IMG/VR virus record: IMGVR_UViG_2534681654_000014
Direction: 5' to 3' (one strand)
DNA length: 5,387 nt
Source of the DNA: a virus
Taxonomy: Duplodnaviria; Heunggongvirae; Uroviricota; Caudoviricetes
Program-made: the position numbers
Part shown: positions 3,001 through 5,387 of the stretch, piece after piece
How positions within the stretch are numbered: position 1 is the stretch's first letter
Layout: each line of letters begins with the position of its first letter

Positions 3001-5387
3001 TTATTGCCCGCCGATCACTATCAGGACAGCACCTGCCCGCCGGTCCAAACTATTGATTAAATTACTATAATTCTTAATACAACTCCCATATCCCGCCATC
3101 TCGCCACCACCCCATTCGCTCGTTTTTCGAACTTTTCAGCACCCATCCTGCTGTTGCCACCGACTTAAGTAAGCAAAACCATCGCGGGTAAAACTATTTA
3201 CACAAAAAAATCATACACATAACGTGTCACACCTTTATTTTACACATTTTGTGATTGACCATTAAATCACAATATGTGACTATCATTTCCATCAGCAGGA
3301 CGCTGAGACGCCACAAGGAACAGATTGGCAGGCTCTTTAACATCGACGAACTCTCAACCTAACCGTTGAGACCAGAACTTGAGTGGTTTTGGGGATGGCG
3401 CGAATTGCAGCTGCAAGACAGCGATCGAGAAGATAAACACCTCGACGCGTCATGCGCCAAAGCCACTTAAAGGAGACCATCATGGTAACCATTGTCTGGA
3501 AAGAATCCAAAGGTACGGCAAAAAGCCGCTACAAAGCTCGCAGAGCAGAACTTATTGCCGAGCGACGCAGTAATGAAGCACTGGCGCGAAAAATTGCGCT
3601 AAAGCTCTCTGGTTGCGTCAGAGCAGACAAAGCAGCATCACTCGGAAGCCTTCGCTGCAAGAAGGCAGATGAATGCAGTGGAAGTATTTGCCTGCCAAAC
3701 GTAGCCATTTACGCGGCAGGCTACCGGAAATCAAAACAACTGACGGCGAGATGATAAATTAATTTGCTAATTACTTGTTTTTGCCATGCTTATCCTGAGC
3801 GATAAGTTCATCCATAAGACTGTCTTTCTTCCCAGCAAACCTAATGTAGCACTCATTTCTATAGCGTTCCGGGATAACAAAACGGTCGATTTCAGGATAT
3901 CCAGTAGCAGAAGGTACCCGAATAAGAAGCCCTTTTTCGAGCAATGAGATTGCTTCAGGGCTTCCCTTTTCTGTCTTTAGCTGGTTATTAGCGGCTACAG
4001 CGAATGCCAAATACGCTCTTTCTCCAAGAGTTAACGAATCAAACAAATCTTGCACGTATTTCTCTTCTTTAGATTTGCGCTTCTGAGCAGCGAATATCTC
4101 AATTCTTTCAGTCACAGCGTGATAAGCGGAATTAACAACGCCGTTAAGCACATAGCTAACGCAAAACAACAGGATGTAATACATCCAGTAATGAGGAAGG
4201 ATTTCTGGATTATGCAGGTTTATCCATTCTTTTACGCTTACAGGCATAACAATAATCAATATAATCAGGATGATTAGCATATGAATCAACTGTTTAAGTG
4301 TCATTCCTTGCAGGAAAAAATGCATTAGTTCCTGCCACCATGAGTTGTTCATCGGCGTTTCTCTTTTGCTCTCTGTAGGGGTGAATAGAGTTTATCCGAT
4401 TTCTCGCTGTAGGGGTACACGAGAACCACCGAGCCTGATGTGGTTAAAAGACAGGCATACTAATAAACACTGCACTGTGTATTCATTCCAACGAGTGAAT
4501 ACACTGAGCAATGTCGCTCGTAACTAAACAGGAGCCGACTTGTTCTGATTATTGGAAATCTTCTTTGCCCTCCAATGTGAGGGCGATTTTTTATCTGTGA
4601 GGATATGAACAGATGTCAAACATCAAAAAATACATCATTGATTACGACTGGAAAGCATCAATAGAAATTGAAATCGACCATGACGTAATGACAGAGGAAA
4701 AACTTCACCAGATTAATAATTTCTGGTCAGACTCTGAATACCGACTCAATAAACACGGCTCTGTATTAAATGCTGTATTAATCATGCTGGCGCAACATGC
4801 TCTGCTTATAGCAATTTCAAGCGACTTAAATGCATATGGTGTTGTGTGTGAGTTCGACTGGAATGATGGAAATGGTCAGGAAGGATGGCCTTCAATGGAT
4901 GGTAGCGAAGGAATAAGAATTACCGATATCGATACATCAGGAATATTTGATTCAGATGATATGACTATCAAGGCCGCCTGAGTGCGGCTTTACCGCATAC
5001 CAATAACGCTTCACTCGAGGCGTTTTTCGTTATGTATAAATAAGGAGCACACCATGCAATATGCCATTGCAGGGTGGCCTGTTGCTGGCTGCCCTTCCGA
5101 ATCTTTACTTGAACGAATCACCCGTAAATTACGTGACGGATGGAAACGCCTTATCGACATACTTAATCAGCCAGGAGTCCCAAAGAATGGATCAAACACT
5201 TATGGCTATCCAGACTAAATTCACTATCGCCACTTTTATTGGCGATGAAAAGATGTTTCGTGAAGCTGTCGACGCTTATAAAAAATGGATATTAATGCTG
5301 AAACGGAGATCAAGCAAAAGCATTCACTAACCCCATTTCCTGTTTTCCTAATCAGCCTGGCATTTCGCGGGCGATATTTTCACAGCC

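Follow-up and report, generated by a model that had tools for sequence, protein, structure and literature searches.

Homologues of the small RNAs sas and PreS and a predicted RNA hairpin in the gene-free interval between sieB and ea10 of a lambdoid Shiga-toxin prophage

Introduction

What is encoded by a stretch of phage DNA that contains no annotated gene and is conserved in several hundred phage records and in 2244 of 5426 complete Escherichia coli genomes? This question is raised by the interval between the superinfection exclusion gene sieB and the gene ea10 (positions 4353-4612) in the viral record IMGVR_UViG_2534681654_000014, from which a stretch of 5,387 nucleotides (nt), referred to as the window, was analysed. 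The window represents the immunity and early-left (pL) region of a lambdoid Shiga-toxin prophage, in reversed orientation relative to the lambda map. VT1-Sakai, i.e., prophage Sp15 of E. coli O157:H7 Sakai, contains the interval with 100% identity (NC_002695.2, 2,935,878-2,936,137) and without annotation. A previous sequence-only reading of this DNA had described the interval as free of protein genes, had listed a direct repeat, a palindrome and an intrinsic terminator, and had proposed that it might hold a regulator binding site or a small RNA. Indeed, the two open reading frames (ORFs) that can be delineated mechanically in the interval give no family match.

As judged from sequence comparison and predicted structure, the interval is very likely a compact non-coding stretch of the pL operon, whose plus strand, i.e., the strand of the pL transcript, carries the two small RNAs (sRNAs) sas and PreS, and in which the palindrome forms an RNA hairpin that accompanies PreS. 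The proposal of a small RNA is thereby borne out, with two RNAs in place of one, neither of which had been recognised from the sequence. Both are previously described phage sRNAs, and nearly all bases of the interval are covered by described elements, namely tL2a (1983), sas (1993) and PreS (2024), so that the finding is genuine but largely already explained. New are the covariation-supported hairpin at the 5' boundary of PreS, the mobility of the cassette of which it is a part, and the conservation of the sas core and of a repeated decamer. The present analysis contributes positions, identities at the sequence level, structure prediction and covariation; what sas and PreS do is taken from experiments with P22 and lambda. 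Neither sas nor PreS is an Rfam family, and an Rfam scan of the whole window with E-values up to 1 gave no match within the interval. Likewise, no sRNA is described at this site in three papers on sRNAs of enterohaemorrhagic E. coli (Tree 2014, Sy 2020, HnrS 2026). As none of the listed phage records and E. coli genomes annotates the interval, the practical value of the assignment lies in annotation.

A PreS homologue that ends in terminator tL2a

The lambda sRNA LPR1, which was renamed PreS, is Hfq-dependent, is encoded between ral and ea10 and appears as bands of about 88 and 68 nt (Silverman et al., bioRxiv 10.1101/2024.10.31.621285). According to the same study, its 3' end is formed by the terminator tL2a and it is expressed in the lytic cycle only. 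PreS activates the translation of dnaN and represses alaS, and its deletion reduces phage DNA replication and plaque yield (bioRxiv 10.1101/2024.10.31.621285).

The primers used for the cloning of lambda PreS, which start with GAGCAATGTCGCTCGTAACT and end with ...GGGCGATTTTTTA (Table S5, bioRxiv 10.1101/2024.10.31.621285), map to positions 4506 and 4593 of the window and delimit a copy in which 87 of the 88 positions are identical to lambda (Table 1). The sole difference is an A instead of a G at position 4575, which lies in the terminator loop. The base directly in front of the 5' end (4505) is a T in the window and a G in lambda, and for the processed form of about 68 nt a start near position 4526 is expected. 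The seed, defined by the stretch that is deleted in the lambda lpr1 Δseed mutant, is identical to lambda; the M1 mutation of PreS alters a CTG that corresponds to positions 4545-4547 (bioRxiv 10.1101/2024.10.31.621285). Two PreS blocks of 11 nt, which are complementary to the dnaN leader as given by the primers of that paper, are also retained. The window copy thus has the same seed as lambda PreS, the same terminator hairpin with a U-tail and the same position in the pL operon just upstream of ea10; however, lambda PreS is preceded by ral, which is missing in front of the window copy.

The intrinsic terminator at the end of PreS, which had been noted in the sequence-only reading as working in the N to cIII direction, is present on the plus strand. 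Its stem comprises eight pairs, five of which are G-C, and is directly followed by a run of six T residues, in agreement with the sequence criteria for both intrinsic terminators and Hfq modules. The homologous terminator is annotated as tL2A in the record of phage HK620, and this annotation together with the primer-mapped 3' end of PreS identifies the terminator as tL2a and as the 3' module of the sRNA. The tL2 cluster goes back to Luk and Szybalski 1983, as cited in bioRxiv 10.1101/2024.10.31.621285. Since PreS is only seen when pL is derepressed and no promoter-like site is found in front of it, the RNA is most likely cut from the pL transcript.

As in lambda, PreS of the prophage would pair with the leader of the host dnaN mRNA, thereby increasing the synthesis of the beta-clamp and phage DNA replication, and would repress alaS. 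The presence of a PreS copy in Shiga-toxin prophages suggests that induction could raise host dnaN expression, with possible consequences for the replication of the phage and for the dosage of the toxin gene. A release of the seed from an inhibitory strand in the 5' part, upon shortening of the RNA from 88 to 68 nt, was considered as well; this idea was dropped, since divergent homologues have not retained the long-range pairing.

A hairpin at the 5' boundary of PreS

The palindrome of the sequence-only reading was found again with arms of 12 nt, GTGTATTCATTC (4477-4488) and GAGTGAATACAC (4493-4504), which contain one T:G position. A single nucleotide separates it from the 5' end of PreS, and a looser helix with arms of 22 nt (4467-4488 with 4493-4514, 82% complementary) is also possible. 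The palindrome was kept in the full lpr1 deletion constructed by the lambda authors (primer P969, bioRxiv 10.1101/2024.10.31.621285). Among 2000 dinucleotide-shuffled versions of the interval, 29 contained a hairpin of at least 12 bp and 34 an exact direct repeat of at least 10 nt; since repeat and hairpin are each just modestly improbable when taken alone, conservation is the stronger argument. The segment 4456-4598, which comprises hairpin and PreS, folds at -46.5 kcal/mol (z = -5.2 relative to shuffles).

Homologues of the hairpin were collected by a scan of viral contigs, which yielded 94 distinct sequences, and were supplemented with divergent copies from P22, S137, Enterobacter bugandensis and Citrobacter braakii. 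A pattern scan of genome contigs was loose and gave mostly chance matches; only its Enterobacter, Citrobacter, Escherichia and lambda-like rows are relevant. The stem of lambda and the window (family A, GTGTATTCATTC / GAGTGAATACAC) is replaced by TATAGCAGATT / AGTCTGCTATG in P22 (family B), by TAATGCGGA / TCCGCATTG in S137 (family C), by TAATGACCATT / AGTGGTCATTG in family D and by AUGCC[A/C] / [U/G]GGCAU in Enterobacter and Citrobacter, and family E corresponds to family A with an extra U·G pair. All of these stems end 0-3 nt before the sRNA. In the relatives, the stem sequence has thus been wholly replaced at least five times, and the pairing was kept.

The same hairpin was predicted independently by RNAalifold on a plain MAFFT alignment of 34 representatives. 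Pairing is found in 99.0% of the cells, compared to 20-55% when the 3' partners are slid, and eight of the 12 stem pairs are altered on both sides. The covariation score of 0.524 (at most 0.134 for slid partners) was reached in none of 500 shuffles; the covariation counts leave out the terminator, where the MAFFT alignment is out of register. Furthermore, all 43 wobble cells are U·G pairs on the plus strand and correspond to A·C mismatches on the other strand. The conserved half-sites, symmetric on both strands, that would be expected of a palindromic operator were not found. Since the stem sequence is replaced while the pairing is kept, and since the wobbles fit the plus strand only, the comparison identifies the palindrome as an RNA hairpin of the pL transcript rather than a protein-binding operator. 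A regulator binding site, which the sequence-only reading had considered for the interval, is thus not supported for the palindrome. Conservation in relatives, on which that reading had made its proposals depend, was found for the repeats, the palindrome and the terminator, and in the hairpin, for which it had suggested a covariance search, pairing is kept across at least five stem families.

The hairpin might mark and protect the boundary at which PreS leaves the long pL transcript. Three effects are conceivable: the upstream mRNA could retain a protective 3' structure, the position of the cut could be fixed, and terminating ribosomes could be held away from the sRNA, whereby PreS would be insulated from the upstream cistron. 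A similar arrangement is known from intercistronic hairpins with a role in stabilisation or processing, e.g., the RNase III sites of the T7 early region, which are likewise stable structures located between the stop codon of the upstream gene and the 5' end of the next RNA unit, and conserved in structure rather than in sequence. Canonical RNase III substrates are, however, longer than the stems of 6-13 bp found here. The conserved hairpin at the PreS 5' end provides a testable handle on the excision of an sRNA from a long antiterminated phage transcript.

Mobility of the hairpin-PreS-terminator cassette

The hairpin families are found in mixed combinations with two types of PreS body, the lambda type of 88 nt and the P22 type of about 102 nt. 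On the outside, the cassette is joined to around 19 families of upstream flanks and to more than 10 families of downstream flanks. The sequence (C)GAATAAGCAC is conserved in front of the hairpin; judged by the reading frame, its TAA appears to terminate the upstream ORF. In many phages, homology to the window starts at position 4462 or 4472; in those that lack ea10, it stops at about 4592-4597, just past the T-run. Four divergent versions were folded and gave the same order of an upstream hairpin, a small 5' hairpin, a second hairpin and the terminator (z of -3.8 to -6.1). Judged by these flanks and combinations, hairpin, PreS and terminator travel as one mosaic cassette.

Two IMG/VR contigs (L071 and L121) contain hybrid PreS bodies, which are of the lambda type up to GGAAATC and continue with a P22-type 3' segment and terminator, indicating recombination inside the sRNA itself. 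Divergent PreS-like cassettes are located at positions 4940-5075 (minus strand) of L127 from E. bugandensis and 5216-5350 of L202 from C. braakii. Their 5' part contains GAUGGC/GCCAUC in place of GAGC/GCUC, and the upstream hairpin, the GUUCUGGUUA seed region and the terminator are kept; both cassettes could be useful as outgroups for a covariance model. Lambda-identical sequence was also encountered in assemblies of Pseudoxanthomonas jiangsuensis, P. kalamensis, Lacrimispora defluvii and Shewanella canadensis (L135, L173, L183 and L193). Three of these four contigs measure just 0.7-1.5 kb, and the coverage is about 1-1.8x in the three cases in which the contig name states it. These sequences most likely reflect contamination of the assemblies with lambda DNA.

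A homologue of the antisense RNA sas and the direct repeats

The part of the interval that adjoins sieB corresponds to the antisense RNA sas of P22. As described in two reviews that cover the work of Ranade and Poteete (1993, Genes Dev 7:1498), sas is a stable RNA of about 105 nt, which is produced by the superinfecting or induced phage and pairs with the sieB mRNA. According to these reviews, the pairing causes a switch in translation, by which Esc, an internal product that inhibits SieB, is made in place of the exclusion protein. The read-defined P22 sas sequence is available from a 2026 survey of P22 small RNAs (PMC13397905). When it was compared to the window, 96 of the first 100 aligned positions were identical, and the sequences diverge after position 4457. 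The 5' end of P22 sas maps to position 4348 and the ATG of sieB is located at 4352-4350, so that the antisense RNA overlaps the start codon and the leader of sieB, as is the case in P22. An RNA of 105 nt, as reported for P22, would end near position 4451. Differences to the P22 system lie in the sequence beyond 4457 and in the host (E. coli here, Salmonella for P22). RNA made in the pL direction during superinfection or induction would pair with the translation start region of the opposing sieB mRNA and could shut off SieB while Esc is still made, as in P22.

Both copies of the direct repeat CTGTAGGGGT, which had been found in the sequence-only reading, are present and lie inside sas and the sieB leader. 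The repeat extends to 17 nt, TTGCTCTCTGTAGGGGT near sieB and TTTCTCGCTGTAGGGGT farther away, with 88% identity and a distance of 34 nt. The sieB-distal copy provides the 5' arm and the GGGG loop of a 10-bp stem-loop at 4401-4425 within sas. The sieB leader as a whole does not fold more stably than shuffled sequence (z = +0.47). The sieB-proximal motif CTGTAGGGG is retained in three differing flanks, in each of which a short stem is found, and a fourth variant only keeps the GGGG. The retention of the decamer is not accounted for by antisense pairing alone. A boxA-like reading of CGCTCGTAAC was considered and dropped, since it is not followed by a boxB-like hairpin.

The distal repeat copy marks the start of a core of 58 nt (4400-4457), which is near-invariant, with at most 1-2 substitutions, in 12 variants, even in front of sieB-like genes as different as that of lambda. 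Window positions 4373-4450 are 94% identical to lambda, compared to an identity of 24% between the SieB proteins. By this comparison, the sas/regulatory module is far better conserved than the sieB gene behind it. Inside sieB, a further inverted repeat (GCAGGAA...TTCCTGC, 4310-4335 on the plus strand, arms of 13 nt with 85% complementarity) ends 13 nt before the equivalent of the sas 5' end and echoes the layout of a hairpin followed by an sRNA that is seen for PreS.

Tentatively, these observations can be extended further, although we rate this extension as less probable than its opposite. Hairpin, PreS and tL2a could constitute a mobile sRNA unit that is complete in itself and comprises about 125-135 bp, in which the 5' hairpin would be a required element for biogenesis or insulation that sets the 5' end of the sRNA. 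Separately, the sas core, which is far better conserved than any sieB allele behind it, might function beyond the antisense control of sieB in cis, e.g., as a promoter module shared between prophages or as a trans-acting RNA, and the two pL-derived RNAs, which are about 50 nt apart in the ral-less allele, might share one precursor.

An allele without ral and orf28

In lambda, orf28 and ral are located between sieB and ea10, and the alignment confirmed the statement of the sequence-only reading that both are missing in the window. Two blocks match lambda: the stretch upstream of sieB up to position 4457, which was placed by inspection and BLAST, and the ral-ea10 intergenic stretch from position 4462 on. 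The blocks meet at a junction of 4 nt, where lambda has about 340 bp more. Since ral and orf28 are missing, the sequence past 4457 differs, and any 3' end of sas located downstream of about 4457 would differ in sequence. The same junction, GGCATAC[T/G]AATAAACAC, is found in HK620 and several IMG/VR contigs, which identifies it as an established and widespread natural allele rather than a private deletion. HK620, a P22-like podovirus, is likewise devoid of ral in its pL region and shows the same order of sas core, junction, hairpin, PreS and tL2A. In contrast to the window, the sieB-like gene of HK620 is hkaP, and the cassette is directly followed by tL2B and cIII, without ea10.

Alternative readings

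Several points weigh against the reading of the interval as a region of two sRNAs with an accompanying hairpin. The 5' end of lambda PreS was defined by cloning primers and the band of about 88 nt and not by end mapping (bioRxiv 10.1101/2024.10.31.621285), and the survey of P22 small RNAs (PMC13397905) lists no RNA at the PreS-like locus of P22. The hairpin families amount to just 5-6 or so independent replacements, and the sas segment does not fold into an unusually stable structure (z = -0.43 relative to shuffles). In addition, Sp15 is described as cryptic, and both RNAs are predicted in this prophage from its sequence.

Among the alternatives, the one with most weight, which we nonetheless consider rather unlikely, is that the interval mainly serves as promoter and operator region of sieB and that palindrome and direct repeats are DNA sites for a regulator. 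The gene is transcribed away from the interval, so that its promoter is expected there; the near-invariance of the 58-nt core, even before sieB-like genes whose products share 24% amino acid identity, would suit a shared promoter or regulatory module, and the decamer CTGTAGGGGT is kept in several contexts. However, a scan of both strands of the interval for consensus promoters gave no site and, on the minus strand, no sigma-70-like site. By eye, a weak minus-strand candidate can be recognised (TGTACC-17-GATAAA, seven of 12 matches). The palindrome lies at least 125 bp from the sieB start and, with respect to the mosaic junction, on the side of PreS, and its half-site sequence is not conserved although the pairing is, with wobbles that fit the plus strand only. 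A literature search for a sieB promoter or transcription start site gave nothing useful. Ranade and Poteete reportedly mapped a promoter in P22. From its position and this work, the sieB promoter probably lies within 4353-4457; the statement of the sequence-only reading that the interval must hold it is thus plausible by location.

A second alternative accepts the hairpin as RNA and regards it as an RNase III processing site like those of T7 early mRNA, with cleavage on the 3' side creating the 5' end of PreS. Elsewhere, the lambda pL RNA is a substrate of RNase III, the lambda-type helix can be extended to arms of 22 nt that take in the first 9 nt of PreS, and a GCAC upstream is complementary to the GAGC at PreS positions +1 to +4 in all families. 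On the other hand, the stems of P22, S137, family D, Enterobacter and Citrobacter comprise just 6-11 bp without a conserved lower stem, which falls short of the length of a canonical RNase III substrate. A conserved and largely continuous double-stranded RNA of at least about 20 bp was not found across the families; only the lambda type has an imperfect helix of 22 nt. It is therefore improbable that the hairpin, which we favour as a boundary element of PreS, is a site of this type.

It is highly improbable that the interval encodes small proteins. Three small ORFs exist mechanically, namely one of 60 amino acids (4345-4527, plus strand), one of 39 amino acids (4392-4511, minus strand) and one of 29 codons that overlaps PreS (4511-4600); none of them gives a Pfam match, the 60-amino acid ORF spans the ral-deletion junction, and conservation tracks RNA pairing and not codons. 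The 29-codon ORF runs on the plus strand from an ATG at 4511 through the whole of PreS to a TGA at 4598-4600. Its start codon is replaced by ATA in P22-type copies, and it is thus probably not a gene. That repeats and palindrome are chance features of an AT-rich spacer has next to no probability: each feature alone is found in about 1.5% of shuffles and is thus not extreme, but this reading is already contradicted by a stem with compensatory changes and by the conservation of the interval, which is shared by hundreds of phages and by 2244 of 5426 complete E. coli genomes.

Gene order and further features of the window

The window starts with the minus-strand genes O (with iterons), cII and cro, followed by cI (plus strand), two accessory ORFs, N (plus strand, 3482-3754), whose peptide is supported by Pfam, and sieB. 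Behind the interval, ea10 is followed by cIII and kil. The features of the interval and its two neighbouring genes are listed in Table 1. The encoded SieB protein shares 85% amino acid identity with SieB of P22 and 24% with that of lambda.

Table 1. Coordinates of the elements assigned to the sieB-ea10 interval and of the adjoining genes.
Feature	Position	Strand	Remarks
sieB, P22-type superinfection exclusion gene	3771..4352	-	start codon 4352-4350; Pfam SieB, E = 1.1e-25
Homologue of P22 antisense RNA sas	4348..4457	+	complementary to start codon, ribosome-binding region and leader of sieB
sieB leader and presumed promoter region	4353..4457	-	by position only
17-nt repeat, copy nearer sieB	4366..4382		contains CTGTAGGGGT at 4373-4382
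17-nt repeat, copy farther from sieB	4400..4416		contains CTGTAGGGGT at 4407-4416
Junction of the allele without ral and orf28	4458..4461		
Predicted RNA hairpin	4477..4504	+	12-bp stem, CAAC loop; covariation; abuts PreS 5' end
Homologue of Hfq-dependent sRNA PreS (LPR1)	4506..4593	+	88 nt
PreS seed	4541..4557	+	stretch deleted in lambda lpr1 Δseed
Intrinsic terminator tL2a, PreS 3' hairpin and U-tail	4565..4592	+	stem 4565-4586, TTTTTT 4587-4592
ea10 (DUF2528), next gene of the pL operon	4613..4981	+	Pfam E = 2e-47; annotated in VT1-Sakai

The two accessory ORFs (93 and 183 amino acids, 2130-2969, plus strand) are located between cI and pL, where they occupy the place of rexAB of lambda; directly behind them, a putative terminator of the pRM transcript is annotated in the VT1-Sakai record. 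Iteron-like repeats (TCCCTC.TTTTGAGGGA and similar sequences) at 120-240 lie within the O gene and presumably represent the replication origin. An Rfam match to the small nucleolar RNA snR191 in the same place was rejected as spurious, as it is produced by these repeats. The sole real Rfam match in the window is Lambda_thermo, the thermoregulator of cIII, at 5041-5099 (plus strand, 88.5 bits). Between ea10 and cIII, a second intrinsic terminator is located at 5005-5024 (plus strand), a position that we take to be that of tL2b on the lambda map.

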